A DNA stretch of 32,000 nt from Candidatus Altimarinota bacterium (GCA_041659405.1 JBAZYK010000004.1:96852-128851), one strand, 5' to 3'. Positions 7,011-30,235 are shown, counted from the first letter of the stretch. Made by a program: numbers and translations. Notes: generated by a model not told the origin, from the sequence alone.

Positions 7011-7043
7011 AGTAGCAGTTTTAAATTGTAGAGCAAGATTTGC

Positions 7044-14322: not shown

Positions 14323-14356
14323 ATTATAAGGTAAAATAATATTTTTTTTAATTCAT

Positions 14357-14397
14357 CGCCGGTTTAGTGGCCGGCGGGGAACCGTCTTCGCGGTCCC
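14357..14397 (-). promoter_or_regulatory. Two tandem GC-rich hairpins in the sigma/A2M intergenic spacer
   Basis: Hairpin 1: CGCCGG (14357-14362) / CCGGCG (14371-14376). Hairpin 2: GGGAACC (14377-14383) / GGTCCC (14392-14397). On the transcribed (minus) strand they are followed by an A-run, not a U-run, so this is not a canonical terminator. Confidence 0.3.
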
Positions 14398-14400
14398 TGG

Positions 14401-14985
14401 TTAAGCGAAATATTGTAAATCAGGTTTTATTTTACGAAGAGTACGGTAAAGGATAATCGCGACATTACTTTCGGAAAGACCGGTCATCTGGACAATTTCT
14501 CGATTCGACAATTCGCTAAAAAATTTCAACTGTATTACTAAAAGTTCTCGTTCAGGTAAAGTTTTCATAACCTTTTTAACCACATCGGAAAGCTCTTCGC
14601 GGGCTGCTTTAATGTGTGGCGAAGCTTTTTCTTCCGGCTCGGAAACACCGTAAGCCCGCTCAATATCGGATGTCCTGGTTTTATTATGTCTCTGGTAATA
14701 ATCATTCAAAACATTGCGGGCTATGCGGAAAACCCAGGCACCAAAGGGTACACCGCGCCATTCAAATTTTTGGATATTTTCCAGCACCTTCATGAAAATA
14801 TCACTCACCAGATCCTCGGCATCATCACGATCATTTATCTTGGCAGCAACAAAAGAATAGACCTTTGGAAAATAAAAATCATAAAGCTTCCCAAAACTTT
14901 CGTTATTTGATTTGGCATCCATCACAAGCTGTTTTTCGTCGCTGAGATCCATCTTTTTTGTGGGAGAAAAGGCGATTGATCGCAT
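14401..14985 (-). CDS. ECF-type RNA polymerase sigma-70 family factor
   Basis: Region 2 (DAEDLVSDIFMKVLENIQKFEWRGVPFGAWVFRIARNVLNDYYQRH) and region 4 HTH (LSNREIVQMTGLSESNVAIILYRTLRKIK). 194 aa. The true start may be the internal MDLSDEK. Confidence 0.85.
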   Translation of the reverse strand: MRSIAFSPTKKMDLSDEKQLVMDAKSNNESFGKLYDFYFPKVYSFVAAKINDRDDAEDLVSDIFMKVLENIQKFEWRGVPFGAWVFRIARNVLNDYYQRHNKTRTSDIERAYGVSEPEEKASPHIKAAREELSDVVKKVMKTLPERELLVIQLKFFSELSNREIVQMTGLSESNVAIILYRTLRKIKPDLQYFA

Positions 14986-15179
14986 TCCGCATCGATCACC
15001 GATACCCCAACAGTATAAGAAAGCGTTAGCATAAGCAAGGCGATCGAAAGAAAAATCACTATTAATAACAGCGCCCCAAAAAAAGTATTACAAAGTTAGA
15101 CTTTGCTCCAGACTCGGCACTTTAATAAGTTGTGCGTGCGCACAGATTTAAGTCTAGAAAATGGCTTCTGCGAGCCAAA

Positions 15180-17771
15180 TTATCTTACTTCAAAAGCAAC
15201 ATTTTTACTCTTCAATACCTTGCCATCACTCAGAACCACCTCTGCCCGCAATTTGTGTGACCCTTTTATCGGCAGCCACAAGGCACTAAAAGGGGATACC
15301 TTATTGGCGACAACCAAAGTTTCATCAATAAAATATCTAACTTCACCGGTATCAAGCGGCACCGTAACCCGCAAAGGAATTTTTTGATCTTTTAAAGGAA
15401 GCGTTCCTTCGATCATGTATTCATCGCCATTCCGTGGCGAATCAATTATCACCTCCGTAAAGTTCGCGCCCGCACTGCCCGCCGCCCCCGCGCCGCCCGT
15501 CGAGCCTGCACCGCTTGCCCCAGTCTGCGCACTCACCGTCTTCCCGCACGGCTCCACATAAGGCAAAGCCAGGCTTTCCCCAACCGCCCATTTTTGAAAT
15601 TTTGGCGGATAAACAACAAAAGTTTTTTGTTGCAGGTTGGCCGGCACGCCTTGGCTACTCAGCGCACTTTCACCTTGCGGCCCACCGCCCAGCGCGCCAC
15701 CGTCAGCGCTCCCACCCACGCAGGCATCCTGAATAATATGTCCGGAATTTTTATCGACCCAAAATTGTTTATAATAATCATCTTTTTCTTTTGGCTCTGT
15801 TCCGGGCACAAACAGTTCAAAAACCCGATCCTGACACAAATCCGTAGGCAATTTGCCGGAAATTCCACAAATTTCCACCTGTTTTAATCCCGCCGGTTTC
15901 ACAAAATCCGTTACCGCCATCCCACTTCCGCCGCCCCCCAAAGCCCCCAACGCCGACTCCATAAAATCATGCCAAATTGGACCCGCTCCATCCACGCCGC
16001 TTATATTATTCATCGGCGTTGCGTCTGCGTTTCCAACCCAAACCGCTGTTAAAAGTTGCGGAGTAAATCCAACCGTCCAGTTATCACGAAAATTTCTGGT
16101 TGTACCGGTTTTAACCGCTGCTGGCCTGCTTAATTCAAGCACGCTACCTTCTCCAAAACCGCCAAGTCTGGCCAACGGATCTTTTAAAATATCAATAATT
16201 TGATAAGCGTGTTCCTTTCCATGTTGTCCCAAAACAAATTGTTCCGGTGGGGGAGTCCACTGATACAAAATTTTCCGCTGCGAATCTTCAATTTTTAAAA
16301 TTGTGCTCAAATCCCTTTCGTTACCGTAATTCGCCAACATATTAAAAGCGCGCGCAAAATCCAGCATTCTAACTTCGGCTCCACCAAGCGTTAAAGCCAG
16401 CCCATAAAAATTCGGATCCTGATCCAGAGTATTAATTCCAATTTTTCTTAAAAAAGAAATAAACGCCTCAACTCCCACAAAATCCAAAGTTTTCACCGCC
16501 GGAATATTAAAAGAACTCGCTAAAGCATTACGCAAACGCACCGGACCATGATACCGCAAATCATAATTTTTCGGCTCATAAGCGCCGGTATCGGTCGAAA
16601 AAGTTGTGGGAACATCATCCAAAATTGTCGCAGGTGTATACCCTTTTTCCAGTGCCAGTAAATAATTAAATGGCTTAACGGCAGAGCCAGGTTGTCGCAG
16701 CGCTGTAACCATATCCACCGCTCCATCAATATTTTCATTAAAATAATTTTCACTTCCAACCCACGCTAAAATCTGTCCGGTTTTTGGATCCAAAGAAAGT
16801 AACGCTCCATTTGTAACATGTTTATCATGCAAAAGTTCAACCTGCCTGGAAACCGTATTTTCAGCCTTTAATTGCAGATTGTAATCCAGTGTTGTGTAGA
16901 TGGATAGCCCCCCGCGATTCATGATTTGATCGCCCAATTCATTGATGACATACTGCACAAAATGCGGTGCTTTCATTTCGGTTTTATTGCGACGCAAATG
17001 GAGTGGTTCTTCGTAAGCCGCCTTGTTTTCCGCATCTGAAATAAATCCATTTTTAGTCATTTGATCCAAAACATATTGCTGTCTTTTTTTTGCCGGATCA
17101 AAATACAAAAATGGATTATAAGCAGACGGCGCTTGTGGAAGCCCCGCCAGGAACGCGCTTTGGGCCAGATCCAAATCATTAACATGCTTGTCAAAATAAT
17201 CCAAAGCCGCAGAATCCGATCCATAAGCCAAATTTCCGTAATAAATTTTATTCAGATAAAGTTCCAAAACCTGATCTTTTGTATAAGAGTGACTCAAACG
17301 AACTGCATATAAAGCCTCCATAATTTTGTCACTCAGGCCGCGTTCCCTATTAACTCCAAGCAGATTTCTTACGAGTTGCTGCGGAATAGTGCTGGCTCCA
17401 CTCACAATTCTTTGCTCGCGCACATTAAAGAAGAGCGAACGCAAAATCGCCCCAAGATCAACGCCACCATGTTCATAAAAATTTATATCCTCTGCCGCTA
17501 AAGTGGCATTAATAAAATTTTTTGGAATCTGATTTAGCGGAACAAAAGTCTTTTTCCCCGAATCCGGCTGCAGAATTTCATATAAAAGCACTCCATTCCG
17601 ATCAAGAATTTTAGTAGAAGGCAACTGATTACCCGCCACAAACAAATCCGGCAACGGCATCACATAAGCAACGTACAAATAAAAACTAAAGCTTAAAAAT
17701 AGCAGCCCAAAAACAGCGGCCAATAGCCAAAATATAATGGGGTGATCCTTCCTGTGAAAAAAAGTTTTCAT
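15180..17771 (-). CDS. pbpC: Bifunctional class A penicillin-binding protein (transglycosylase/transpeptidase), PBP1C-like
   Basis: GT51 motifs: AAEDINFYEHGGVD and GASTIPQQLVRN. Transpeptidase motifs: SAVKPF (SxxK), SSFN (SxN) and KTGTT. An N-terminal TM anchor is present. The C-terminal beta domain (IDSPRNGDEY...VRYFIDETLV...WLPIKGSHKLRAEVVLSDGKVLKSKNVAFEV) matches the pattern of the PBP1C C-terminal domain. Confidence 0.88.
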   Translation of the reverse strand: MKTFFHRKDHPIIFWLLAAVFGLLFLSFSFYLYVAYVMPLPDLFVAGNQLPSTKILDRNGVLLYEILQPDSGKKTFVPLNQIPKNFINATLAAEDINFYEHGGVDLGAILRSLFFNVREQRIVSGASTIPQQLVRNLLGVNRERGLSDKIMEALYAVRLSHSYTKDQVLELYLNKIYYGNLAYGSDSAALDYFDKHVNDLDLAQSAFLAGLPQAPSAYNPFLYFDPAKKRQQYVLDQMTKNGFISDAENKAAYEEPLHLRRNKTEMKAPHFVQYVINELGDQIMNRGGLSIYTTLDYNLQLKAENTVSRQVELLHDKHVTNGALLSLDPKTGQILAWVGSENYFNENIDGAVDMVTALRQPGSAVKPFNYLLALEKGYTPATILDDVPTTFSTDTGAYEPKNYDLRYHGPVRLRNALASSFNIPAVKTLDFVGVEAFISFLRKIGINTLDQDPNFYGLALTLGGAEVRMLDFARAFNMLANYGNERDLSTILKIEDSQRKILYQWTPPPEQFVLGQHGKEHAYQIIDILKDPLARLGGFGEGSVLELSRPAAVKTGTTRNFRDNWTVGFTPQLLTAVWVGNADATPMNNISGVDGAGPIWHDFMESALGALGGGGSGMAVTDFVKPAGLKQVEICGISGKLPTDLCQDRVFELFVPGTEPKEKDDYYKQFWVDKNSGHIIQDACVGGSADGGALGGGPQGESALSSQGVPANLQQKTFVVYPPKFQKWAVGESLALPYVEPCGKTVSAQTGASGAGSTGGAGAAGSAGANFTEVIIDSPRNGDEYMIEGTLPLKDQKIPLRVTVPLDTGEVRYFIDETLVVANKVSPFSALWLPIKGSHKLRAEVVLSDGKVLKSKNVAFEVR

Positions 17772-17849
17772 AATAACTCAAACACGCCAAAGATTCAGTT
17801 CGTGCAAAATTATAAACCCTTTCAGCCAAATTCCTATTACAAAATTCTT

Positions 17850-18275
17850 TTACTTCCAAACCTGATACCACTTCCTTTTTGGCTGTTCCAAGAGTTTAAA
17901 TTGATTTTCCAAACTCAAAAAACGATCCTGAAACGCCTTCATAAAACGCATAAAACTTTCTTTGTCCTTCTTGTTACCTTCCAGCAAACCTTCAACGTGC
18001 GCCTGCAATTTTTGAAGATCCTGCAAAGTTGCAACCTCGGCGGAAACGGCCTTTGACTCTTCCTTGATTGAGCGTTGTTCACGATCAAAAATCGAACTCT
18101 GGCCAAGTTTATAAAACTTAACAAGACTTTCCTGGGTAATCAAATAATTAAAACCCTGTGGAGTCCTTTTTTTCTTTGCCTGAAGCTTTTTGCCTTTCAA
18201 AGCACGACGAATGGTTTGTAGCGATTTACCACTTATCTTAGCGGCTTCTTGAAGCGTTAGCAGAGTTTCAGGCAT
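17850..18275 (-). CDS. Helix-turn-helix DNA-binding protein (excisionase/MerR-like HTH) with coiled-coil tail
   Basis: The N-terminus LLTLQEAAKISGKSLQTIRRALKGKKL resembles the excisionase-family HTH. The rest is a charged coiled-coil-like sequence. A possible TTGATT-18-TATAAT promoter (minus) lies at 18316-18345. Confidence 0.55.
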   Translation of the reverse strand: MPETLLTLQEAAKISGKSLQTIRRALKGKKLQAKKKRTPQGFNYLITQESLVKFYKLGQSSIFDREQRSIKEESKAVSAEVATLQDLQKLQAHVEGLLEGNKKDKESFMRFMKAFQDRFLSLENQFKLLEQPKRKWYQVWK

Positions 18276-18368
18276 GAATTTTTATTAAAAAATCTTTTAA
18301 AAAACTATCACCGGCATTATAGTGAATAGTCGTTTGGATAATCAAGAGAGAAAATCAAAAAATCCTTA

Positions 18369-18398
18369 TTGACCATTATGATGAGCCAATGCTACACT
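18369..18398 (+). promoter_or_regulatory. Candidate promoter for an orphan small RNA
   Basis: TTGACC (18369-18374), an 18-nt spacer, then TACACT (18393-18398). No ORF lies downstream. Confidence 0.3.
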
Positions 18399-18409
18399 AT
18401 AACTACAAA

Positions 18410-18485
18410 GACCTTGTCTCCAAATTGTCACCGTATGGTGGCGTTTCCATGATTTCCATGGAATAGGAGCGGGGTCGTTTTTTTA
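18410..18485 (+). ncRNA. Candidate small structured RNA (Y-shaped, three helices) ending in a U-run
   Basis: Closing helix: GACC/CUCC (18410-18421) pairs with GGAG/GGUC (18466-18476). Inner hairpins: CACC-GUAU-GGUG (18429-18440) and CCAUG-AUUUC-CAUGG (18447-18461). A T7 run follows (18478-18484). The region is non-coding in all frames. Confidence 0.25.
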
Positions 18486-18626
18486 TTTAAATTCCCAAAT
18501 ATCATCGATTAATTTGTTGATGATTTTTCTTTGTGTATTTTAAAACCTGCGTCCCCCGATTCATCTATAAAAACGATCATAGTATTTTCAATACGGTGAA
18601 AATTACTACTATCTTAGTGGTTTGGC

Positions 18627-18659
18627 TCTTTTGAAAACCGACTGGTGCAGGGCACGCAG
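18627..18659. repeat. Outer homology box, left copy (inverted partner at 24979-25010)
   Basis: CTTTTGAAAACCGACTGGTGCAGGGCACGCAG versus the reverse complement of the right copy TTTTTGAGAACCAACTGGTGCAGGCAGCGCAG. By-eye alignment gives roughly 85% identity with one 1-nt indel. Confidence 0.6.
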
Positions 18660-18738
18660 TGATGCCTGACACCGCGTGCTCTGGAAAACATAATGCTAAA
18701 ATCTGCGCCGCCTGAGGCGGGGGGCAGGTAGCACGGGG

Positions 18739-18868
18739 CGTTTTTGGGTAAAAAAGCCTTGCATCTTTAAAAAGATATTGGTAGGATAACCCTCCTTATC
18801 ATTAAGCGCCATTTATGTTAGAAATAAGAGACCAGATAAACTTAATTGACGATAGCCATATAACCAAA
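18739..18868. repeat. Core inverted repeat, left arm (promoter + leader + ATG + first ~18 codons of the AspRS-like gene)
   Basis: 18755-18854 aligns to the reverse complement of 24608-24714 with 3 mismatches plus one 7-nt tandem duplication (AAGCGCC) in the right arm. Weaker homology extends outward over a CGTTTTTG(G/T)GTAAAA(A/G)AGCC stretch. It also extends inward to codon 18. Confidence 0.92.
18759..18787 (+). promoter_or_regulatory. Putative promoter of the plus-strand island operon (inside the inverted repeat)
   Basis: TTGCAT (18759-18764), a 17-nt spacer, then TAGGAT (18782-18787), 27 nt upstream of the ATG at 18815. An identical element is mirrored at 24682-24710. Confidence 0.4.
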
Positions 18869-20158
18869 CCAGTCGAGATTGATGACTTAAGCAAGAGGTC
18901 AGGGGAGACCGTGCAAATGGAAGGTGCTGTTCACAAGATTAGAAGCTTGGGGAATGTAGCTTTTATCGTTATTCGAACTATAAGGGATAAATTACAGGTT
19001 GTTCTGGATGGTGAATCCATGCAATTACTTTCCGGTTTGAAAGAAGGCGATTTTGTAAAATTCAGTGGCGTTGTGGAAGAAAATCCTAAAGCATATAAAG
19101 GGCAGGAAGTTAGAGCAACAGCCATAGATAAGTTAAGTGGAGCAAAGGATGTATTAGAAGTTAATCTTGGGGCAAAAGAGCTTCCAATGAATCTTGAAAC
19201 AAAATTGGATCGTAGGATTTTAACATTAAGGCATTTGCGTGAAAGAGCGGTTTTCAAACTGCAGGAAGGAGTTGGTGTTGCTTTTCGAGAATATCTTTTG
19301 GATCAGAGATTTACCGAAATACATTCGCCCAAAATAGTTGCAGCAGGAGCTGAAGGAGGAGCCAATATATTTAAACTTGATTATTTTGGACGACCTGCTT
19401 TTCTTGCTCAAAGTCCTCAATTTTATAAACAATTTATGGTTCCTGTGTATGGTAGAGTTTTTGAAGTGGGGCCAGTTTTCCGCGCGGAGAAACATGCGAC
19501 TTCGCGTCATATTAACGAATACACATCATTAGATTTTGAAATGGGTTTTATTGATTCTTTTAGAGATGTTATGTCGATGGAAGTTGGTTTTTTGAAATAT
19601 CTTATAGGGGTTTTGGGGCAGAGGTATGGACATGAACTTGAATTGCTTGGCATAAAACTGCCGGATATTAGTAGTGTCCCAGCTATTAAATTCGCTGATG
19701 CTAAGGAACAAGTAGCAAAAAAATATAACAGAAAATACAGAGATCCTTATGATTTAGAACCAGAAGAAGAAAGATTGATCGGAGACATGGTTAAGCAAGA
19801 AACAGGAAGTGATTTCGTATTTCTAACCCATTACCCTAAGGCCAAACGTCCATTTTACACTATGTCGTCTACTGAAGATCCAAATTATACCGAAAGTTTT
19901 GATCTGCTTTTCAAAGGATTAGAAATTACCACTGGTGGTCAACGAATTCATGATTATGACACACAGGTAGAAGCCTTAAGAGCAAAAGGGTTAAATCCAG
20001 ATGACTTTAAGGATTATCTTGAATTACACAAAAATGGCACTCCTCCTCATGGTGGTTGTGGAATTGGACTTGAGAGGTTAACATTAAAACTTTTAGGAGG
20101 AACCAATGTTAGAGAAGCAACGCTCTTCCCAAGAGATTTGAATCGTCTTACTCCTTAA
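18815..20158 (+). CDS. aspS: Archaeal/eukaryal-type (class IIb) aspartyl-tRNA synthetase, catalytically intact, with an extra N-terminal ~20-aa tag
   Basis: OB-fold anticodon-binding start (VQMEGAVHKIRSLGNVAFIVIRTIRDKLQVV). Motif 1 is FTEIHSPKI and the Asp-specific motif is AQSPQFYKQ. Motif 2 is VFRAEKHATSRHINEYTSLDFEM and motif 3 is PPHGGCGIGLERLTLKLLGGTNVREATLFPRDLNRLTP. The 447-aa length fits the short archaeal-type AspRS. Whether it is the housekeeping copy or a paralog cannot be told from this window. Confidence 0.85.
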   Translation: MLEIRDQINLIDDSHITKPVEIDDLSKRSGETVQMEGAVHKIRSLGNVAFIVIRTIRDKLQVVLDGESMQLLSGLKEGDFVKFSGVVEENPKAYKGQEVRATAIDKLSGAKDVLEVNLGAKELPMNLETKLDRRILTLRHLRERAVFKLQEGVGVAFREYLLDQRFTEIHSPKIVAAGAEGGANIFKLDYFGRPAFLAQSPQFYKQFMVPVYGRVFEVGPVFRAEKHATSRHINEYTSLDFEMGFIDSFRDVMSMEVGFLKYLIGVLGQRYGHELELLGIKLPDISSVPAIKFADAKEQVAKKYNRKYRDPYDLEPEEERLIGDMVKQETGSDFVFLTHYPKAKRPFYTMSSTEDPNYTESFDLLFKGLEITTGGQRIHDYDTQVEALRAKGLNPDDFKDYLELHKNGTPPHGGCGIGLERLTLKLLGGTNVREATLFPRDLNRLTP

Positions 20159-20169
20159 AGTGTAAAATT

Positions 20170-20928
20170 ATGTATCGAGAAGGTATTGAAGTGAAAAGGG
20201 ATACAAATGCTGGCATACTCCTCGAATACCCTTCTTGTCTCGAAGTTGTTGAGAAACTCTTTCCTGATAGTTGTGAAAGAATTTATTATCCGAATGACGA
20301 AGATTCTGTTGTTCATGTGAATCGTGAAGGAATAGATGTTGCATTCATTGCAGGACATGGGGCAAGTATCGCAGCGTGCATGGCAGAAAGACTGCGCGTA
20401 TATGGGGCACAAGCATTAGTACGTATTGGAACGTGCGGTGCCCTTTCAAAAACAGTGCGCCTTTGGGAACCGATCATCACTACGGCATGTTTTAGCGACG
20501 AAGGTACTTCGAGACATTATCTTCCCGAAGGATTTCCTATTGTTTCAAATCCAGCATTAAATCTGGCTCTTCGTGAGCATTTTGAAAAAAGCGGGATAAC
20601 TCCGCAAGAAGGCATATCCATTACGACTGACGGAAGATGGCGGGAGGATCCAGGGCTTTTTAAAAAGTTACATGAACTTGGGGTAGTTTCGGTTGAAATG
20701 GAAACTGCAGCCATTCTTGCTGTAGCGCAATATCGAAAACTATTTGGCGCTGCGATTAATATCGCGACAGATTTGCCAGCAGATGTAGAGAGTGAACATG
20801 ATTTTAAGGGGATTCCTGATCGTGAAAACTATGACGAAAATTTTGATAAGAGCTTACGGATAATTATCCCGATAGTTATCGATACGCTTGTTGCCTTTCA
20901 GAGAGTTGTTTTAGCTTCTCATCTATGA
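20170..20928 (+). CDS. Nucleoside phosphorylase/nucleosidase, PNP_UDP_1 (DeoD/Udp/MtnN) superfamily
   Basis: GHGASIAACMAERLRVYGAQALVRIGTCGAL (the GxGxxS...E.L...G...IR.GTCG pattern) and VSVEMETAAILAVA (the EME-x-AA motif). It starts 11 nt after the AspRS stop. Confidence 0.75.
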   Translation: MYREGIEVKRDTNAGILLEYPSCLEVVEKLFPDSCERIYYPNDEDSVVHVNREGIDVAFIAGHGASIAACMAERLRVYGAQALVRIGTCGALSKTVRLWEPIITTACFSDEGTSRHYLPEGFPIVSNPALNLALREHFEKSGITPQEGISITTDGRWREDPGLFKKLHELGVVSVEMETAAILAVAQYRKLFGAAINIATDLPADVESEHDFKGIPDRENYDENFDKSLRIIIPIVIDTLVAFQRVVLASHL

Positions 20929-21560
20929 AAAGAGAATGGAATAACATTTCTGATGATACTGAGACGATGGTATTTACAACCCCTTTGCCAGATGCGCGAA
21001 TTTTATCGTTAGCGCCGCCTGAGTCTTCAAGTGTGCTTGATATAGGTTGTGGTTATGGTCGTGTCTTAAAACATATGTATGAAATGGGATATCGAGATCT
21101 TACTGGGATTGACGTTTCCGATGGACTTATATTAAGAGCTAAACAATTGTGTCCTGATGCCGTCTATCGCATTCAAGATATTGAGAGTATCCAACTTGAA
21201 CAAAAATATGATCTGATTTTAATCATGGGAGTTATTGAATATATTTTGAGTGATGAAAATCAGAAAGAATTTTTTGGTAAAGTGAGTAGAGCTCTTCGCC
21301 CTAATGGACACGTATTATTAGAAACATTTGTTCTTGACCCTACAAATATATGTCAGTACATGGCTGGACTATTGAAAACAGGCCATTTGGGCAGATTTAC
21401 GAATAACAGTAAGGGATTTGAGTGTCATCATCAATCTTATGCAGTTGTAGATAGACTTGTGTCTGAATTTTTTGAGGTAATAATCCGAACTCGCCAAAAA
21501 TTTTTAACCTGGACTGGCTATGAATGTAACGGGTATTCACTTATTCTTCGGGCTAAATAA
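20925..21560 (+). CDS. Class I SAM-dependent methyltransferase
   Basis: Motif I VLDIGCGYGRVL, an acidic loop TGIDVS, and a post-I/II pattern (YDLILIMGVIEYI, LRPNGHVLLE). It has a 4-nt ATGA overlap with the upstream gene. Confidence 0.8.
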   Translation: MKREWNNISDDTETMVFTTPLPDARILSLAPPESSSVLDIGCGYGRVLKHMYEMGYRDLTGIDVSDGLILRAKQLCPDAVYRIQDIESIQLEQKYDLILIMGVIEYILSDENQKEFFGKVSRALRPNGHVLLETFVLDPTNICQYMAGLLKTGHLGRFTNNSKGFECHHQSYAVVDRLVSEFFEVIIRTRQKFLTWTGYECNGYSLILRAK

Positions 21561-21583
21561 TTTTTGTGATATACTTTCAATAT

Positions 21584-21766
21584 ATGATATCTTCGCAACA
21601 CAACTCTTCTCTACGCCAGCTAGAACGTCTAATGCAAGAAAAGGATGAGGAACTGACCCGTCTAGACAATCTTAAAAAAAATGAATTTAGAGATATGCGG
21701 CGATTATCTGAAATAGATATGACGATACAAGAAATAAGGCGTAAAATGATGTTTCACCATGAATAA
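21584..21766 (+). CDS. Small (60 aa from the ATG) charged coiled-coil protein, hypothetical
   Basis: The tracked ORF 21566..21766 starts with GTG; the first ATG is at 21584. Its stop overlaps the HIT gene start by 8 nt (ATGAATAA), which suggests translational coupling. No recognisable motif. Confidence 0.35.
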   Translation: MISSQHNSSLRQLERLMQEKDEELTRLDNLKKNEFRDMRRLSEIDMTIQEIRRKMMFHHE

Positions 21767-22169
21767 ATGTGTTTTTTGCATTATTGCGCGACGCGAAAAA
21801 TCTGCCAACATTGTGTGGGAAGATGATTATGTGATGGCTTTTTTGGATATTGATCCTATTTCAGATGGTCACACCCTTGTGATTCCAAAAAATCATATTC
21901 GCGATGTAAGTGGGCTAGACGAAAAAACAGGCTCTCACGTGATGAGTGTTGCAAAAATTTTAGCATCCGTTATAGAAAAAACTTTTGGATTCGATGGTAT
22001 CGAAATCAGAGCTGTAAGTGGACATTTCCAAGATGTTCCTCATTTTCATTTGCACGTTTTTGGCAGAAATAAGATAAATGACATAAAGATTATATATCCT
22101 AAAGGAATCAATAACTCTCCCGAATATTTGGCTAAAAACGCTAAAAAAATCAAGGATGAATTGAAGTAA
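21759..22169 (+). CDS. HIT (histidine triad) family nucleotide hydrolase/phosphoramidase, Hint branch
   Basis: CVFCIIARRE N-terminus, DGHTLVIPKNH, and the histidine triad VPHFHLHVFGR. 136 aa. Confidence 0.9.
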   Translation: MNKCVFCIIARREKSANIVWEDDYVMAFLDIDPISDGHTLVIPKNHIRDVSGLDEKTGSHVMSVAKILASVIEKTFGFDGIEIRAVSGHFQDVPHFHLHVFGRNKINDIKIIYPKGINNSPEYLAKNAKKIKDELK

Positions 22170-22176
22170 AATTTTA

Positions 22177-23175
22177 CTATACGATCTTTGGTAATTTCTT
22201 TCCATTCCTATAAGAGTCAACTAAATCTGTATAATCTGATTTTTTATTCCCCTGTTTACTTGGACTAAAAGCAGTTAGATATCTGTTTCCAGAATCTGGA
22301 CATAAAACAACTAAATTTTTTCCAGTAAGCCCGTTATCGTCTACAAACTGTTTTGCCGCTGCCACTGCCAATCCGCTAGAGCCTCCAATGTAAATTCCAG
22401 TTTCAGTTATTAGATTTTCTATTTCCATCAATGCTAGTGCATCCCGTACTTCCACTACATTTGCGAGAATATCCAAATTTAAGTTTTTAGGGATGAAATC
22501 TTCACCAACACCTTCTATTGCAGTTACCACGTTTCTACTCTCATTTATTCCATGAAATTTTGTGTAGTAAACTCCTGAATCTGGAGTTACTCCTACAACT
22601 TTCGTAGGAAGATCTTCATCTTTAAAATACTGTGCAACGCCGGAGGCCGTCCCTCCAGTTCCCATAGGACTAAATACATAATCTGCATTTGGAACATTGT
22701 TATGTATTTCAGGGCCGGTCGTTTTTTTATGAGCTTCTGGATTTAAAGGATTATTAAATTGATCTATGAAAATCGAATCACGAGTATTTTGTGCAATGAT
22801 TTCAGCGAAACCTCTAAAACCCAATGGGGATTCTGAATGTACGGATTCATCCACCATAATCAATTCTATTCCGTATCTTTGTAAAAGCTTAACCTTATCA
22901 GGACTAGTTTTGGATGTTATTATTAGCACTAATCTAAATCCATAAATTTTTGAAGCCATAGCCAGTCCAATTGCCAAATTACCACTGCTATATTCAACTA
23001 CTGTTCGTCCGCGTAAACCTATTTTTTTATCTAATGAATTACATACATGAAAAGCAACACGATCTTTTATAGACAAACCTGGATTCGCTCCTTCAAGTTT
23101 TAAATGTAGGCGATTGTCTTTATAAGGTATTTCAACGATTGGAGTATTACCAACCAAATTTTCCGCATTACGCAT
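22177..23175 (-). CDS. PLP-dependent beta-replacement enzyme of the cysteine synthase / CBS (fold type II) family
   Basis: PLP-lysine motif NPGLSIKDRVAFH, phosphate-loop SPMGTGGTASGVAQYF, and the overall CysK/CysM layout. 332 aa. It starts 2 nt after the upstream PP-loop gene stop. Confidence 0.85.
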   Translation of the reverse strand: MRNAENLVGNTPIVEIPYKDNRLHLKLEGANPGLSIKDRVAFHVCNSLDKKIGLRGRTVVEYSSGNLAIGLAMASKIYGFRLVLIITSKTSPDKVKLLQRYGIELIMVDESVHSESPLGFRGFAEIIAQNTRDSIFIDQFNNPLNPEAHKKTTGPEIHNNVPNADYVFSPMGTGGTASGVAQYFKDEDLPTKVVGVTPDSGVYYTKFHGINESRNVVTAIEGVGEDFIPKNLNLDILANVVEVRDALALMEIENLITETGIYIGGSSGLAVAAAKQFVDDNGLTGKNLVVLCPDSGNRYLTAFSPSKQGNKKSDYTDLVDSYRNGKKLPKIV

Positions 23176-23177
23176 AG

Positions 23178-24647
23178 CTATTTTTTGTTAAAAAAACGTC
23201 TAAAAAGTAAAGAATCTGGGACTTCTAAGCGCGGTCCATCACAAACACGTTGATATATCCAGCCTAAACCATCAACAAATTGCGGAATTTCTCCATGAGA
23301 AGCTATCGTCGGAACCCTGCGTCCAAAATATTGTTCATACGGCATTACTCTATCGTCATCATTTAAATGATCTGCTGGCAAAGCAGAATAATCAACTCCC
23401 AATTTTGCACTCATTTTTTCCCTGTCACCAACAAAATTTAATGACTGATCAGTATTTGAGCTATCAACTGTTTGATATCTACCCGAGTATCTCTGGTCAA
23501 GATATTCTGCAACTTTTGGATTGAAAGGCAGTTCTTTGGAGAAAAGTTGACTTTCTGCAATAACGTCTTTCCCATATTTAGCTACAAGCTTGTCGTATAA
23601 TGGATTTCCAAATAAATAACCTGGTGTATCAATTACTTGAGGCATTTCTCTAAGATACTCGTATCCTTTTAAATGCATTGCAGTACTTGCGAGTTTTATA
23701 CGTTGACATTTGTCGCAATATCCACAATCAGAGGCATTTTCGCTATTCCAGCATGATACGCGAGATTCAAGTGCTGCAAGTCCGAATTTACGTCGTATGT
23801 ATTCAAATACTGAATATGTGCTTAAGGTGGCAAGAGGGTAAGTAAAACTTACCGATGGTCCCAATAATGATTCCAAATACTTTTGATGCAATTCCATTGC
23901 CATCGGACTCTCATAAGGAGCTCTTCTTCGATTTGAATTAAATCCCAAAACATCAAATGAATGACCAATTGCAATGTGTTGAGGAACTCTATCTTCGACG
24001 TTCCATAAAGATGCAAAGTATGTCATTGAAATATCAAATGGCTCATATCTACCATCAAGTCCATTCCTACAAACATCGTGCTCATAAGTAGAATAATCAG
24101 CATTATCAGTAGGGTTCTTCTTATCATAATCAATTTTGTAGTCGCGAAGATCAAACCCGCATGCTTTTAATATTTCAGCTGATACAAAAGAGTCTCTTCC
24201 TCCGCTATTTCCAATTACAATTTGATTTGGAACAGCAGTGACCGGGTCTGGATGTAATTCCGTCAATGTCCTCGCGGTCACAAGTGGTGGACGAGCATCA
24301 TCCAGCGAACCAATGACCCCCGAACTGAGACGGCCGATAAATTCAAAAGATCTAGGATCTAAATCAAAATCTAAATTGATTATCATGGATTGACGAAATT
24401 TGCCAATCATCGCGGCAATAAGTGCAGATTTTATTATTTCAAGACCAACCTCTGTTGGCTTCTCTTTTGCAGTAAATCCAATTACCGATAAAATTTTACT
24501 TTGTATATCACTAGCTCTAAGTACAGCGGAATTTTGTGCGTGTTCAAATTCGCAATTAATTATTGCATCTGAACTGACTTCACTACCTTGTTTATTGGTT
24601 ATACGATTATCGTCGATTAAGTTTACCTGGTCTCTTATTTCTAACAT
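23178..24647 (-). CDS. PP-loop ATP pyrophosphatase, QueC/ExsB-like, with C-terminal Cys cluster and large extra N- and C-terminal regions
   Basis: SGGxDS PP-loop (IVIGNSGGRDSFVSAEIL). SCWNSENASDCGYCDKCQRIKL resembles the QueC zinc-binding CxxCxxC tail. At 489 aa it is about twice the size of canonical QueC. The N-terminal MLEIRDQVNLIDDNRIT is shared with the AspRS-like protein. Confidence 0.7.
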   Translation of the reverse strand: MLEIRDQVNLIDDNRITNKQGSEVSSDAIINCEFEHAQNSAVLRASDIQSKILSVIGFTAKEKPTEVGLEIIKSALIAAMIGKFRQSMIINLDFDLDPRSFEFIGRLSSGVIGSLDDARPPLVTARTLTELHPDPVTAVPNQIVIGNSGGRDSFVSAEILKACGFDLRDYKIDYDKKNPTDNADYSTYEHDVCRNGLDGRYEPFDISMTYFASLWNVEDRVPQHIAIGHSFDVLGFNSNRRRAPYESPMAMELHQKYLESLLGPSVSFTYPLATLSTYSVFEYIRRKFGLAALESRVSCWNSENASDCGYCDKCQRIKLASTAMHLKGYEYLREMPQVIDTPGYLFGNPLYDKLVAKYGKDVIAESQLFSKELPFNPKVAEYLDQRYSGRYQTVDSSNTDQSLNFVGDREKMSAKLGVDYSALPADHLNDDDRVMPYEQYFGRRVPTIASHGEIPQFVDGLGWIYQRVCDGPRLEVPDSLLFRRFFNKK

Positions 24648-24732
24648 AAATGGCGCTTGGCGCTTAATGATGAGGAGGGTTATCCTACCAATATCTTTTT
24701 AAAGATGCAAGGCTCTTTTACACAAAAACGGG
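24594..24732. repeat. Core inverted repeat, right arm (promoter + leader + ATG + first ~18 codons of the PP-loop gene)
   Basis: Its reverse complement aligns with 18739-18868 (see the left arm). It contains a 7-nt tandem duplication AAGCGCC AAGCGCC in the leader that is absent on the left. Confidence 0.92.
24682..24710 (-). promoter_or_regulatory. Putative promoter of the minus-strand island operon (mirror of 18759-18787)
   Basis: On the minus strand: TTGCAT (24710-24705), a 17-nt spacer, then TAGGAT (24687-24682). The sequence is identical to the left-arm element. Confidence 0.4.
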
Positions 24733-24978
24733 ATCATACGTTTTCCACAGATCAGTAGTTTTTTATTATGCGAACAAAAGTACACAACAACACAATTCTG
24801 GAAGGATTTAGCAAAATTCATTTTGGCTTGCAGGTGCGGACTTTTGACCATTTTCGCCTTCACTGGAAGGAATTCCCCACAATTTTTAGCACTCGTTAGT
24901 GTGCATTTACAAAGAAATTTTCCCGAGTTTTGATTTGAAATTATTTCAAAGAAAAAAGCGTATGACCCCAAAAATATC

Positions 24979-25010
24979 CTGCGCTGCCTGCACCAGTTGG
25001 TTCTCAAAAA
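24979..25010. repeat. Outer homology box, right copy
   Basis: Inverted partner of 18627-18659. It abuts the U-run of the tRNA-Lys terminator. Confidence 0.6.
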
Positions 25011-25034
25011 AAACCTCTGTAGGTTAGCCTACAG
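25006..25034 (-). terminator. Rho-independent terminator downstream of tRNA-Lys
   Basis: On the minus strand: CTGTAGG-CTAA-CCTACAG (a 7-bp stem, 25017-25034), followed by AGG and then a U8 run (plus-strand A-run at 25006-25013). Confidence 0.6.
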
Positions 25035-25114
25035 TTCATCTAAAATATATTCTAGCAGAGTTGTATAATCCCTTCAAAAAACCGAAAATTTTCATTTTAA
25101 CGGTATTGAATCCC

Positions 25115-25190
25115 TGGTGGGCTAGATCGGAATCGAACCGATGACCATCTCCTTAAAAGGGAGCTGCTCTACCGACTGAGCTACTAGCCC
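25115..25190 (-). tRNA. tRNA-Lys (anticodon UUU), CCA encoded
   Basis: The 76-nt reverse complement GGGCTAGTAGCTCAGTCGGTAGAGCAGCTCCCTTTTAAGGAGATGGTCATCGGTTCGATTCCGATCTAGCCCACCA folds as a cloverleaf. It has a 7-bp acceptor stem, a 4-bp D stem, the anticodon loop CTTTTAA, and a TTCGATT T-loop. There is one G-A mismatch at 27:43. Confidence 0.95.
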
Positions 25191-25379
25191 GCACGTTTAC
25201 CTTTTTGTTCCGCGCTTTATGCTCTGCGCATTTGCCTCACGCCGCACCTTTTTAAAACTCCACCTTGGCATTCCGGCGAAAAGCTTCCACATTTTAGGGA
25301 TGATAGAAGGTTTTTTCAAGGCCATTTTAAAACTGGCCGCCCGATAATCAAATAACATACGCTTTGCTCAAGACCTAAA

Positions 25380-26051
25380 CTAGGCCTTTTTGTGCATCAT
25401 TCCCCTGACAATAAAAAAGAGTCCCGGAAGGAAAAACCAAAAATTGGCATAATCCAGCATGATTTTTATAAACCTTGAACTGTTATAAACATCGTTCAGT
25501 ACACTTGCGGAAACCGCGCTTACCGCAGCCCCACCTGCCGCAACAGCAACATCCGCCGCAGCTCCACCCGTTGCCGCGACAACATTTGCTCCTCCACTCA
25601 CCAATACGGCTCCGGAACTCACGGTCGGCCCAATTAAAGACGCTCCGGATATAAAAACCAAAACGGCACTTATCATCAATCCTCCACTTAAAACTCCCAA
25701 TGTAATCAATTCCGCAAACCGCGCGGACGGAGGGCCATCCACGATCGCTTCAACTTGAAAAAGTCCTCTTACCGCAATCAAAACAACCAAAACCAGCAGA
25801 ATCAAAACTTTAAAGTATGCCACCGCCTGCTGCTCGCTTCCAATCGATAAAAAAGATAAAACCTTCAAAAAACCCTTTAATCCAACAACATACTTGTCAA
25901 AAACATTGCCCAATCCATCCGCACAAAGTATTGCTACATAAGTTCCCAGAATGACTTTTAATGTTTGATTACGGCCTATTATAAAGCTATAGGCTATAAC
26001 CACCGCGAAAAACACAAGTATAAAAAGGTCCCAGGAGAGATGTAAATTCAT
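25380..26051 (-). CDS. Polytopic membrane protein, tentatively CvpA-like
   Basis: The N-terminus SWDLFILVFFAVVIAYSFIIGRNQTLKVILGTYVAILCA resembles the CvpA (colicin V production) family N-terminal pattern. The C-terminal half is rich in Gly and Ala. The functional call is weak. Confidence 0.45.
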   Translation of the reverse strand: MNLHLSWDLFILVFFAVVIAYSFIIGRNQTLKVILGTYVAILCADGLGNVFDKYVVGLKGFLKVLSFLSIGSEQQAVAYFKVLILLVLVVLIAVRGLFQVEAIVDGPPSARFAELITLGVLSGGLMISAVLVFISGASLIGPTVSSGAVLVSGGANVVAATGGAAADVAVAAGGAAVSAVSASVLNDVYNSSRFIKIMLDYANFWFFLPGLFFIVRGMMHKKA

Positions 26052-26175
26052 GAAAAATAAACAAAAATCAACTGGAAGTAATTATAATGGAATTCCCAAT
26101 ATAAGAAAAGAAAATTTTCATTCTGATTTTTATTTCAGTTTTCGCAGTTGAAGTTGATCCCATTTTTTGCACTTT

Positions 26176-27354
26176 TTATCCTTTAAATTTTCCAAAAAAT
26201 CCATCTTTTAATCCTTTAATGTTAACTCCACCCTCTTGTGCCAGTTGTAAATAAAGTTCTCTTTCTTTTCGTGTGAGTTTTGCCGGAATATCCACAGTTA
26301 CCTTTACAAACTGGTCACCTTTTTCATCGGATTTTAATTTTTTGATCCCGTATCCTTTCATTTTGAAAATTTTCCCACTTTGTGTTCCTGCCGGAATCTT
26401 TAACTCGAATTTTCCCTCTAGGCCCGCTACTCCAACCTCATCGCCCAAAACCGACTGCAATAAATGGATATGAATTTCACAATGAATATCGTAGCCATCA
26501 CGAACAAAAACTTTACTTGGTGCCACAAGCAAATGAACGTATAAATCGCCCGCAGGTCCCCCAAAAGTCCCCGCTTCACCTTTCCCCGTAACTCTAATGG
26601 TTGAATCATTATCCACGCCCGCAGGAATTTTCACGCGCATTTTTTCGCTTTTACGAACGCGCGTCGTGCCATGGCAAACCGTACATTTTTTTTCTTGAGT
26701 GCTGCCCTCTCCATAACATTCGGAACAAACTTGAGTGGTCGCCATTTGCCCAAATAAAGTTTGGCGTACGCTTCTTACTTCTCCGCTACCTCTGCAGGTT
26801 GGGCAAATAATTGTCTTGCTGCCAGGCTCCGCGCCTGTTCCACGGCAATGATCGCAGCTGAAAGTTTTTGTGATTAGTAATTCTTTTTCCGTGCCAAAAG
26901 CCGCCTCTTCAAAGGTTATCTGCAATTGAAATTCAATATCTTCACCCTGTCTTGGTCCACGTTTTTTTCCGCGTGATCCACCGTGCCCGCCGCCCTGTGA
27001 TCCAAAAAAAGTTTCAAAAATATCCGCAAAACCACCACCTTCGGAAAATTGCGAAAAATCAAATCCGGATCCATTAAAACCTTGTCCAAAGCCCGCACCG
27101 CCGCCTTGTGCGCCGCCATATCCGCCACCACCAAATGCATCTGCCGATCCAAACTGATCATAATTGGAACGTTTTTGCTTATCGGAAAGCACTTCATAGG
27201 CTTCATTGATCTCCTTGAATTTGCTCTCGGCTTCTTTATTGTCTTTGTTTCGATCAGGATGATACTGCAAAGCCATCTTTCTATAGGATTTTTTAATTTC
27301 CTGATCAGTAGCGCCTTTTTGGATACCTAATATATTGTAATAGTCTTTGGCCAT
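26176..27354 (-). CDS. dnaJ: Molecular chaperone DnaJ (type I Hsp40)
   Basis: J-domain ([34 protein letters not shown]), a G/F-rich region, and four CxxCxGxG zinc-finger repeats ([32 protein letters not shown]). The start is set at MAKDYY (ATG 27354-27352). The tracked ORF's 15-codon extension overlaps tRNA-Glu. Confidence 0.95.
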
Positions 27355-27363
27355 AATTTTTTT

Positions 27364-27438
27364 TGGTAGTCCTAACGGGAGTCGAACCCGTGTTTCCACC
27401 GTGAGAGGGTAGCGTCCTAACCACTAGACGATAGGACC
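27364..27438 (-). tRNA. tRNA-Glu (anticodon CUC), CCA encoded
   Basis: The 75-nt reverse complement is GGTCCTATCGTCTAGTGGTTAGGACGCTACCCTCTCACGGTGGAAACACGGGTTCGACTCCCGTTAGGACTACCA. It has a Glu-type short D stem, the anticodon loop CTCTCAC, and a T-arm ACGGG-TTCGACT-CCCGT. There is a G1-U72 wobble pair. Confidence 0.9.
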
Positions 27439-27467
27439 AAATGCCGCCTAAAAATTGCAGCCCTAAG

Positions 27468-27496
27468 ACTGTAGCCTAGAATAACAGGAATTTCAA
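27468..27496 (-). promoter_or_regulatory. Putative promoter for the tRNA-Glu/dnaJ transcription unit
   Basis: On the minus strand: TTGAAA (27496-27491), a 17-nt spacer, then TACAGT (27473-27468), about 30 nt upstream of the tRNA 5' end. Confidence 0.45.
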
Positions 27497-27667
27497 TGAG
27501 TCGTGGTATTAAAATAAAACAAAAGGGGGCTCTCTCATTTTCAGCGGTTCTTTTTCACCCATTTTACCGAATCAAAACCTTCTATGGTTATGCGGATGGC
27601 TTTGATTTTTTTTACAAGCTCTGCCCCGGTTGTTTTTGGCTTTTTGCTAATTTTGATGGTGGGGAGT

Positions 27668-28081
27668 TTAAGCATAAGATTGAGATTTAATAATCTTATT
27701 GTATTCTGTCTCCATTTTAATATCAAATGTATAAAGTTCGTCAACCTTAAAAAGCAAAGCTGAGGTAATGATCAATAAATCAAGTGCTCTTAATTTAGCA
27801 TGTCTTGCGCATTCCAATACGTGTTCATGCCAAAATTTATAATCATAATCCAAGAGCATAATATTGTCCGTATTATTGAAGATCATTTTCACTTCCTTTT
27901 CAAATGAGGGTTGATTTAGTTTAATGATATTATTCATCACTTCCGCGTAAATTATCATCGGGACCAAAATAATTACATTCCTCTTCATTAGTTTTTTAAA
28001 AATTTGATCAGCCTGTTCTTTGTGCATATCTCTAACGAATAACGATATCCATACCGAGCTGTCCAGCATCACTTTTTTCAT
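27668..28081 (-). CDS. PIN-domain ribonuclease (VapC-like toxin), no adjacent antitoxin ORF
   Basis: MKKVMLDSSVWISLF provides Asp1. YAEV provides the Glu. LRALDLLI and YTFD provide the further acidic residues. 137 aa, which matches the size and motif spacing of a PIN domain. Confidence 0.8.
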   Translation of the reverse strand: MKKVMLDSSVWISLFVRDMHKEQADQIFKKLMKRNVIILVPMIIYAEVMNNIIKLNQPSFEKEVKMIFNNTDNIMLLDYDYKFWHEHVLECARHAKLRALDLLIITSALLFKVDELYTFDIKMETEYNKIIKSQSYA

Positions 28082-28119
28082 GGGGGATTGGTTACTATCA
28101 CCACCAGCTTACCCCCTCT

Positions 28120-28162
28120 ACATTAAAATTTTCTAAACGGATTATGAAATCTGTCTAAAATC
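28120..28162. repeat. 43-bp direct repeat, copy 1 (upstream of the PIN gene)
   Basis: ACATTAAAATTTTCTAAACGGATTATGAAATCTGTCTAAAATC is identical at 41 of 43 positions to 29977-30019. Confidence 0.92.
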
Positions 28163-28243
28163 ATTGCGCCCACCTGTGCGCGCGCACAGAGTTCCATTAT
28201 CGTGCGCCATTGCGCTGTTATCGCGCCATTTAGTTCGCATAAC

Positions 28244-28277
28244 AAAAAACTTCGGCACCGTAGACGTCTACAGCGGC
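28244..28277 (-). terminator. Possible rho-independent terminator of the AbiE operon
   Basis: On the minus strand: GCCGCUGUAGAC/GUCUACGGUGCC, an imperfect palindromic stem centred on GTAGACGTCTAC. It is followed by GAAG and a U6 run (plus-strand A-run at 28244-28249). Confidence 0.4.
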
Positions 28278-28345
28278 TTTCTACCGCGGTGGTGGGCTTT
28301 CCACCTGTAATTATGCGCACTTTTTCTGAAACTTTGCCGTGCCGC

Positions 28346-29098
28346 TTAATCAATACGCATAAATGGAAGTGACCTTACCATGTCTTCAATTTTCTTGGGC
28401 TCCACCTTGCGTGAATAAAATATCCTGTCAATTTCCATTTCTTTTTGTTCCTCCAGGAATTTCCAATTATTAATAATATTGGCAAGAGTAATGGGTTTTC
28501 TTATTTCCTTCCGCTTAATGAATTTTATAATTTCAGCAAAATCCGGCTGGTATTTTTCAAAAAGCAAATATAAATCATAATAATCACGGTATCGTGCCCG
28601 TTCACTCATGGCTCTGATTTTTTCTGCGCATATTTCCCGCTCATCCATGACTTTTATGTTCAGATCGATTCCCCAAACATTATTGTATTTCATGATTTTA
28701 GGCGGCAAAAGTACATTTTGCAGAAAATCAATTTCAACTTTTAAAGAATTTGGCTGAATTAATGGGCCAATGTACTGCAGTTTTTCAATTTTTACCGTTG
28801 CGCCTGAAAGATAATCTTTTTTTATTTTTAAATATTTTGTATTAGTAAAAATATTACGAATATCTTCCAGCCTGATTGTTTTTTGATTAGCTGAAAAATC
28901 CAAATCTTCAGAAAATCTGTGTTGTTCAAGATAGCAGTGATTGAGCGCGGTACCACCTTTGAAAATTAATTTTTGGCCAATGGAAGACTCGGAAATAATT
29001 TGCAAAACAAGAGCAAGAAAATAATCTTTTTCGGCTATATGCAAAGGATATTGCAATGTTTTTCTGTTGATAACTTCCAGCTGCTGCCTTGTAATCAT
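28346..29098 (-). CDS. AbiEii/AbiGii-family nucleotidyltransferase toxin (DUF1814-type, type IV TA / abortive infection)
   Basis: LIFKGGTALNHCYLEQHRFSEDLDFS is the signature GGTAL...R.S.DlDf nucleotidyltransferase motif of this family. 250 aa. It has a 4-nt overlap with the upstream AbiEi-like gene. Confidence 0.85.
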   Translation of the reverse strand: MITRQQLEVINRKTLQYPLHIAEKDYFLALVLQIISESSIGQKLIFKGGTALNHCYLEQHRFSEDLDFSANQKTIRLEDIRNIFTNTKYLKIKKDYLSGATVKIEKLQYIGPLIQPNSLKVEIDFLQNVLLPPKIMKYNNVWGIDLNIKVMDEREICAEKIRAMSERARYRDYYDLYLLFEKYQPDFAEIIKFIKRKEIRKPITLANIINNWKFLEEQKEMEIDRIFYSRKVEPKKIEDMVRSLPFMRID

Positions 29099-29910: not shown

Positions 29911-29976
29911 ATATTCTATACCATACCCGCTAAATGATCAATGTTTTGAATACGATGCGAACACAATAACAAACGC

Positions 29977-30019
29977 ACATTAAAATTTTCTAACCGGATT
30001 ATGAAATCGGTCTAAAATC
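29977..30019. repeat. 43-bp direct repeat, copy 2 (upstream of the AbiE operon)
   Basis: ACATTAAAATTTTCTAACCGGATTATGAAATCGGTCTAAAATC; see copy 1. Confidence 0.92.
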
Positions 30020-30235
30020 GCAATTTTATGATGATCTGGAATTCCTCAGCCCCGCCACTGGCACTTCCACCACCTCCCCATCCGATTACCCAAAATCCCA
30101 TAAAATTCACACTCCCGCATCCTCATTTCCCCGCTCGACTACCCAAAATCGCCAAAAATATCAGACCACACCACATTTCGCCGCCCCCGTCACCCGCATT
30201 TCTGAAACGTTTTACCCCCTTTGGAGTTTGTTAAA

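Follow-up and report, generated by a model that had tools for sequence, protein, structure and literature searches.

A 32-kb stretch of DNA from a metagenome-assembled genome (MAG) of Candidatus Gracilibacteria, here called the window, contains two near-identical inverted arms from which two convergent operons start. The plus-strand operon begins with a gene for aspartyl-tRNA synthetase (AspRS) and the minus-strand operon with a gene for a QueC-like PP-loop ATPase. Our comparison with related loci indicates that this layout probably arose by a lineage-specific inverted duplication of the AspRS expression module, which was fused to the PP-loop gene, with the interior inverted inside a genomic island. 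According to this explanation, a module consisting of Box A, a promoter, a short leader, the ATG and 17 codons of AspRS would have been duplicated in inverted orientation. The second copy would have been fused in frame to the PP-loop gene, replacing its native promoter and first few codons, and the 5.7-kb interior between the copies would have flipped relative to a tRNA-Lys flank within a 6.74-kb island. The element is an ordinary rearrangement scar, combining inversion-with-duplication, promoter capture and 5′ gene fusion, and not a new regulatory or mobile system.

The self-comparison of the window, by repeat finding and by BLASTN against its own reverse complement, revealed a single significant inverted repeat in the 32 kb (E = 2e-40), formed by the two core arms listed in Table 1. 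These arms are identical at 121 of 129 positions (93.8%), besides a 7-nt tandem duplication in the right leader, and share identical runs of 41 and 32 nt. The 41-nt stretch (18756-18796) spans the region from -35 to about +1 and contains a promoter-like element with an extended -10. Its pattern, TTGCAT-N17-TAGGAT, has only these two matches in the window, compared with 0.07 expected by chance. Downstream of the promoter-like element, both arms continue with a leader of about 20-27 nt, an ATG and the 17 codons that they have in common. A first-pass annotation, made from the sequence alone, had described 18755-18854 as nearly identical to its counterpart, with 3 mismatches and a 7-nt AAGCGCC duplication, and had placed a promoter-like element, a leader, the ATG and about 17 codons in each arm. 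Both descriptions proved exact, and the self-BLASTN that it had proposed confirmed the repeat and gave the extents in Table 1. It had also raised the concern that the repeat might be an assembly artefact. A contig assembled with MEGAHIT from another sample (L008; ENA ERZ27249449) is collinear with window positions 13178-32000 at 99.825% identity, has zero single-nucleotide differences over 14918-31412 and carries both arms in the same orientation as the window. This independent assembly shows the same layout and rules out an artefact or chimera for practical purposes.

The donor of the module is the AspRS gene. Gene calls were judged with Pfam and NCBIfam, and the AspRS gene scored 532 bits against a cutoff of 353 with the NCBIfam model for aspartate--tRNA(Asn) ligase (NF003483). 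The AspRS genes of L009-L013, L014 and L001, whose products are 88%, 82% and 80% identical to that of the window, carry orthologous versions of the entire left arm. In order, these comprise a T run with Box A, a covarying hairpin, Box B, a GC-rich hairpin with a T run, the promoter-like sequence TTGCAT/TTGCTT-N14-TGG-TAnnAT/CATAAT, a short leader and an N-terminus of the form M-x-E-I...LIDD...EIDDL. The -35 (TTGCAT/TTGCTT), the TGG and the -10 (TAnnAT/CATAAT) are kept in four orthologous AspRS upstream regions. In the outgroups the module is single-copy and occurs only at AspRS (L001, L009-L013 and L014). The two arms of the window are 93.8% identical to each other, compared with 58-70% to the orthologues. 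At six of the eight sites where they differ, the left arm agrees with the closest relative, L009, so that the same fraction (6/8) of the differences is derived on the right, PP-loop arm. Taken together, these values indicate that the module was copied after the divergence from the L009 lineage and that the direction was from AspRS to the PP-loop gene. Since the copying, three amino-acid changes have accumulated in the copied codons, and the 41-nt promoter stretch has remained unchanged in both arms. Scans for further copies of the AspRS 5′ module returned one already known contig from the metagenome collection and none from the genome-representative collection; neither provided closer relatives carrying the module.

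The recipient gene bears the corresponding mark at its N-terminus. An alignment with 15 homologues (44-65% identity) identified residues 1-17 of the window protein, MLEIRDQVNLIDDNRIT, as an N-terminal addition, which is absent from all 15 homologues; these start about 17 residues later. In the AlphaFold (AF2) model, which has a mean predicted local distance difference test (pLDDT) score of 82.7, residues 1-25 fall below 50 and are predicted to be disordered. The model further shows extra N- and C-terminal domains around the QueC-like core, and a structure search with it recovered the QueC-like core and a weak uS11-like N-terminal domain only. None of the Pfam or NCBIfam models matches the PP-loop family. 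The closest cluster, L001, matches the window in its six genes and in their convergent order, and the promoter region and start of its PP-loop gene are unrelated to those of the window. The inverted repeat is absent from L001 as well as from the clusters L002 and L005, the latter two being divergently arranged. That the AspRS module was copied onto the PP-loop gene, and in the window lineage only, is hardly in doubt. The first-pass annotation had assigned both genes correctly, as AspRS and as a QueC-like PP-loop ATPase, and had considered the architecture a possibly undescribed system; the latter idea is contradicted by the relatives, in which the two genes have unrelated 5′ regions and no repeat. 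The PP-loop family itself is rare: 19 clusters were found among 5.8 billion proteins, only in Gracilibacteria and Peribacteria, and the three loci among GTDB representatives all belong to Candidatus Peribacteria.

Outside the core, the homology between the arms becomes weaker and ends exactly at the T run of Box A. We scored the box matches against 1000 shuffles. The Box A pair is clearly above chance (z = 9.2; its score was reached by none of the shuffles), whereas Box B, scored alone, is not (z = 2.0; reached by 61). The weaker outward homology noted in the first reading of the sequence is thus upheld for Box A and not for Box B on its own. Two hairpins lie upstream of the AspRS promoter. 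For hairpin 1, RNAalifold on the window, L009 and L014 predicted 11 pairs, five of them with compensatory changes. In the relatives the hairpins are located at about 9835-9915 (L009) and about 85-165 (L014). They could represent a small RNA, an insulating terminator or an attenuator; neither hairpin has a match in Rfam. The AT-rich stretch of about 227 nt in the right arm has no significant similarity to the PP-loop upstream regions of L001, L002, L005, L024 and L025 or to window positions 1-18000. The left spacer (18363-18626) likewise lacks significant similarity to these upstream regions, and the AT-rich stretch and the spacer lack it to each other.

Both arms lie within a segment that is very likely an island. 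Relatives with the same backbone were reached through homologues of the 223-aa membrane protein that adjoins tRNA-Lys. In L021, BLASTN aligned positions 1207-3488 with window 27439-25104 and positions 3513-6155 with window 18362-15721. Since only 24 nt separate these blocks in L021, the window segment between them is an insertion. The island context suspected beforehand was borne out by this synteny comparison, in which L021 and L027 lack the island beside tRNA-Lys and L026 carries other cargo. The position 3′ of tRNA-Lys is a variable spot in this clade (L026 4134-4981, L021 3401-3598 and L027 8623-8771, in addition to the 6.7-kb island described here). The G+C content of the island is about 0.35-0.41, compared with 0.39-0.44 in the adjoining kilobases. 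As att-like direct repeats, the junctions offer only the 6-nt sequence TCAATA, which is not significant, and a repeat of the tRNA 3′ end is absent from the distal junction. The HTH_17 gene next to the island matches Pfam PF12728 just under the gathering cutoff (26.2 versus 27 bits). A role as island excisionase is ruled out for it: the gene sits at the L021 empty site and has no homologue beside the L001 cluster. At its left end the island carries a DUF3800-IX RNA motif; there is no DUF3800 gene nearby, and the motif is absent at the L021 empty site.

On balance, the sequence of a relative argues that the island interior was inverted while the flank stayed fixed, and that the breakpoints lay in the duplicated module. 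The 66 nt that precede Box A in L014 can be aligned over their full length with the 3′ flank of the window tRNA-Lys (score 21.5, z = 10.4), whereas the same 66 nt give no alignment with the left flank of the window (z = 0.8). The terminator hairpin reads CTGGAGGCTAGCCTCCAG in L014 versus CTGTAGGCTAACCTACAG in the window, a compensatory stem change. In L014, a 2.3-kb contig with the tRNA outside, the flank on the tRNA-Lys side adjoins the AspRS end; in the window it adjoins the PP-loop end. L020, which comes from the same study as L014, is 85% identical to the DnaJ-membrane-protein flank of the window and ends inside tRNA-Lys, as would be expected if L020, tRNA-Lys and L014 formed one continuous stretch of a genome.

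Several observations weigh against an inversion. Its evidence is the single L014 contig, which starts about 37 nt past the expected end of tRNA-Lys and shows neither the tRNA itself nor the far end of the island. The closest relative by AspRS identity, L009, has its AspRS operon elsewhere, behind rpe and without PP-loop genes, so that the ancestral state hinges on the species tree. The hairpins of the relatives sit on the left arm, whose outer part would be the copy under the inversion model; their loss from the tRNA-side arm needs post-inversion selection. Finally, the left spacer would be expected to resemble the PP-loop upstream regions of the relatives under a one-step model, provided that these regions are conserved, and it shows no such homology.

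The rearrangement could also have been a duplication without any inversion, the AspRS 5′ module having been inserted upstream of a PP-loop gene that already lay beside tRNA-Lys. The similarity to L014 would then reflect a copy that included the terminator flank, or a separate rearrangement in L014. The left arm fits this reading well, as it keeps the hairpins of the relatives, is attached to AspRS and looks like an untouched original; moreover, L001 already has the convergent order without the repeat. However, the terminator and the 66 nt are common solely to the AspRS side of L014 and the PP-loop side of the window. Since the homology of the arms stops at the Box A T run, a duplication alone would have to be supplemented by either a loss on the left or another event in L014, and we consider it unlikely.

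A segment that still inverts is very unlikely. In such a system the 129-nt arms would flip the 5.7-kb interior by means of RecA or a site-specific recombinase, as in phase variation. The identical runs of the arms are, in principle, long enough for homologous recombination, and the L014 flank points to an inversion in the past. However, we found no recombinase, integrase or transposase domain among the window open reading frames (ORFs) of at least 110 aa scanned with Pfam, a set from which the 2171-aa ORF at 7807-14322, the ORF at 31593-31952 and short overlapping ORFs were left aside, and HTH_17 is a backbone gene present at empty sites. Both independent assemblies read through the two arms in one orientation, and the arms have diverged by 6% and an indel, which implies that they were not homogenised recently. 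Moreover, each arm contains its own copy of the same inward-facing promoter, and a flip would leave each gene with the same module. The first-pass annotation had offered inversion of the interior as one of its readings: a past inversion is supported by the junction in L014, an active switch is not. Its further suggestion, a footprint of how the island was assembled, is supported as well, and the co-regulation of both operons that it had also proposed would be a plausible consequence of the repeat.

We regard it as highly improbable that the arms are the terminal inverted repeats of a mobile element inserted beside the tRNA gene, even though comparison with three relatives shows the segment to be an insertion, it adjoins a tRNA gene and it harbours an inverted repeat. 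The island extends beyond the outer ends of the repeat (18629 and 25009) by about 265 nt and 94 nt, and the arms are therefore not terminal repeats of the insert; the initial description of a segment bounded by the repeat does not hold for the same reason. The arms are also the AspRS gene's own upstream region, which is single-copy at other loci in the relatives, no transposase or integrase was found, and the only junction repeat is the 6-nt TCAATA.

AspRS genes in other bacteria are often under leader control, and a cis-regulatory RNA needed by both genes (a riboswitch, a T-box or a leader peptide) would account for the common leader and first codons; it is nevertheless exceedingly improbable, as neither arm has an Rfam match at the gathering threshold or with E up to 5, the leader and 5′ coding region fold like shuffled sequences (z = 0.4-1.2), the PP-loop genes of the relatives lack the element, and the conserved hairpins, which only the left arm has, precede the promoter. 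A known RNA family or a structured leader in the arms is ruled out by these Rfam and folding results.

An inverted duplication accompanied by inversion, as we propose, could have been reached by two routes. In the first, a single event with staggered breaks would have inverted the segment and at the same time duplicated the breakpoint sequence in inverted orientation; in the second, the duplication would have come first, followed by homologous recombination between the copies. Both routes lead to the present structure, and candidate mechanisms are staggered breaks, replication template switching or duplication with subsequent RecA-mediated inversion. Following the flip, both hairpins would have been lost from the tRNA-side arm, and the AT-rich stretch would have come to lie between its two boxes, A and B. 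The hairpins would have been retained in the arm that now serves AspRS. The promoter would have stayed identical, while the copied codons and the outer PP-loop-side arm drifted.

Table 1. Features of the window and gene order at the tRNA-Lys site of three relatives.
Feature	Position	Strand	Remarks
HTH_17 gene	17850-18275	-	backbone, not island; 84%-identical homologue right after tRNA-Lys in L021
Island, 6.74 kb	18363-25103	.	very likely an island; absent from L021; begins 11 nt 3′ of tRNA-Lys
DUF3800-IX RNA motif	18410-18480	+	Rfam RF02968, 62.6 bits vs gathering 36.8; left end of island, outside repeat
Left Box A	18629-18659	+	outer limit of duplicated segment; diverged form upstream of AspRS in L009 and L014
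Hairpin 1 (GCACGC...GCGTGC)	18652-18679	+	kept upstream of AspRS in relatives; absent from right arm
Left Box B	18679-18695	+	weak match, collinear with rest of arm
Hairpin 2, GC-rich, then T run	18705-18725	+	left arm only; kept in L009 and L014
Left core arm	18739-18867	+	native AspRS promoter, leader, ATG (18815), codons 1-17; orthologous to AspRS 5′ regions of L009, L014 and L001
Left promoter-like element TTGCAT-N14-TGG-TAGGAT	18759-18787	+	-35 and extended -10; in 41-nt identical stretch
AspRS, 447 aa	18815-20158	+	archaeal-type, non-discriminating; NCBIfam NF003483; Pfam tRNA-synt_2 and OB fold
PNP_UDP phosphorylase (PNP/UDP family)	20170-20928	+	Pfam, NCBIfam
S-adenosylmethionine (SAM) methyltransferase	20925-21560	+	Pfam, NCBIfam
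66-aa ORF	21566-21766	+	no family match
HIT protein	21759-22169	+	Pfam, NCBIfam
CysK/SbnA-like pyridoxal phosphate (PLP) enzyme (PALP)	22177-23175	-	second in minus-strand operon; Pfam PF00291, E = 6e-61
QueC-like PP-loop ATPase, 489 aa	23178-24647	-	SGGRDS motif; QueC-like CxxC Zn-binding motif
Right core arm	24595-24730	-	copied AspRS promoter, leader, ATG and 17 codons; in-frame fusion to PP-loop gene
7-nt tandem duplication AAGCGCC-AAGCGCC	24652-24665	-	right leader
Right promoter-like element	24682-24710	-	identical to left copy; pattern match
Right Box B	24734-24750	-	12/14 identical to left copy
Decayed outer right arm	24734-25009	-	Box B, ~227-nt AT-rich stretch replacing hairpin 1, Box A; hairpin 2 deleted
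Right Box A	24978-25009	-	matches left Box A
Terminator hairpin after tRNA-Lys	25017-25034	-	homologue directly upstream of AspRS in L014
tRNA-Lys(UUU)	25115-25190	-	backbone; ARAGORN, Rfam; same tRNA at L021, L026 and L027 sites
L021 site			empty; after DnaJ and membrane protein: tRNA-Lys, 122 nt, HTH_17 (84% identical), PBP, ECF sigma factor
L027 site			empty; after DnaJ and membrane protein: tRNA-Lys, 73 nt, HTH_17 gene
L026 site			different cargo; after DnaJ and membrane protein: tRNA-Lys, dCMP deaminase gene, 144-aa gene, PBP

The two operons (AspRS-PNP-methyltransferase-HIT and PP-loop-PALP) would thus start from the same promoter and the same unstructured initiation region. The plus-strand genes downstream of AspRS recur in L001, and the PALP enzyme scores under all NCBIfam equivalog cutoffs. 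The operon ends (22169 and 22177) are 7 nt apart, with no recognisable terminator between them, so that transcripts from the two identical promoters should collide. A Shine-Dalgarno-like sequence was found upstream of none of the 22 window ORFs; in such an organism the leader and early codons probably set the efficiency of initiation. Sharing of the -35 and extended -10, the leader and the early codons would therefore equalise the expression of the two linked operons. That the duplication brought a co-regulatory benefit of this kind is possible, if somewhat doubtful. Moreover, where Shine-Dalgarno sequences are lacking, a portable expression module may need to extend as far as the first codons.

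Many Gracilibacteria read UGA as glycine. An alternative code of this kind is unnecessary here and the standard code 11 is adequate, given that 20 of the 22 window ORFs end in TAA or TAG and that TGA is absent in frame from the long ORFs (2171, 915 and 863 aa); both TGA stops lie within 4-nt ATGA overlaps with the next start.

The genes of the two operons belong to a conserved neighbourhood. Every one of the six distinct PP-loop loci has the AspRS, HIT, PP-loop and PALP genes next to one another. AspRS and PP-loop genes diverge from a common intergenic region in the Peribacteria relatives (L002/L023, L024 and L025) and in L005, and in some of these loci that region also holds a HIT or methyltransferase gene; in the window and L001 they are convergent and about 6 kb apart. 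The HIT gene (3032-3439 in L001) shares its strand with AspRS in the window and L024, and with the PP-loop gene in L001, L002, L005 and L025. Since it switches strand between otherwise collinear clusters, small local inversions appear to recur in this neighbourhood. A triad of AspRS, PNP and methyltransferase genes also occurs with another accessory set at L015 7001-11593 and L017 7001-13601. This set consists of a PALP enzyme, an OCD/mu-crystallin (SbnB-like) protein, a Lactamase_B_2 protein and a short tRNA-synt_2b paralogue, and suggests that alternative amino-acid-modifying modules assemble around one AspRS-PNP-methyltransferase core.

It is conceivable, though distinctly unlikely, that the rearrangement was kept because AspRS and the PP-loop, PALP and HIT proteins form one undescribed pathway that needs matched expression. 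Such a pathway may perform chemistry on Asp-tRNA or aspartyl-adenylate, for example an amidation or thiolation by way of adenylation that complements or replaces GatCAB, in which the PLP enzyme may supply ammonia or sulfide. If so, duplication of the module would restore the co-regulation that the relatives obtain from their shared divergent intergenic region. A literature search on GatCAB in bacteria of the candidate phyla radiation (CPR) gave nothing useful. Apart from the repeat itself, its surroundings provide two leads. One is the spot 3′ of tRNA-Lys, where insertions vary among Gracilibacteria. The other is the PP-loop ATPase family, which is rare, uncharacterised and, in these reduced genomes, invariably linked to a non-discriminating AspRS.

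A second block of the window is also absent from L021. It spans 27440-30198 beside a tRNA-Glu gene (27364-27438) and contains toxin-antitoxin genes, namely PIN (27668-28081), AbiEii (28346-29098) and AbiEi (29095-29910). A 43-nt direct repeat (95% identical; 28120-28162 and 29977-30019) brackets AbiEi and AbiEii and resembles the ends of an inserted cassette.

The arrangement shares single traits with several known types of element. Unlike in a transposon with terminal inverted repeats, the inverted repeats are not at the ends of the insert, and no transposase was found. As in tRNA-adjacent genomic islands, there is presence/absence polymorphism immediately 3′ of tRNA-Lys, with other cargo in L026; in contrast to them, no integrase and no distal repeat of the tRNA 3′ end were found, the drop in G+C is small, and the cargo includes an AspRS that looks housekeeping. 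Invertons of the fimS/hin type also have inverted repeats that flank a segment, and promoters are involved in them as well. However, the arms described here are about 130 nt long and 6% diverged instead of short and exact, no recombinase was found, and the promoters lie within the arms and face inward; one orientation is seen, and a flip would leave expression unchanged.

The closest parallels are two known processes. As in promoter capture with 5′ gene fusion, a complete promoter, leader and N-terminal block now precedes an unrelated gene and gives it a chimeric N-terminus; here, however, donor and recipient share one conserved neighbourhood, the copy is inverted inside the same island, and a benefit is inferred. 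Inversions flanked by inverted duplications of a single-copy breakpoint sequence have been explained by staggered breaks (Ranz et al. 2007, PMC1885836), a model that was described for Drosophila chromosomes with repair by non-homologous end joining (PMC1885836). In our case, too, a sequence that is single-copy in the outgroups is present twice, in inverted orientation, at the ends of a segment that has probably flipped relative to the outgroup flank, and no repetitive element or recombinase is involved. The differences are that the segment is 5.7 kb long and lies in a CPR bacterium, and that the duplication additionally gave rise to an in-frame gene fusion and to a second promoter that looks functional. 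The window offers a clean bacterial example of a known process, in which a rearrangement gave a second operon the complete transcription and translation start of its partner gene.

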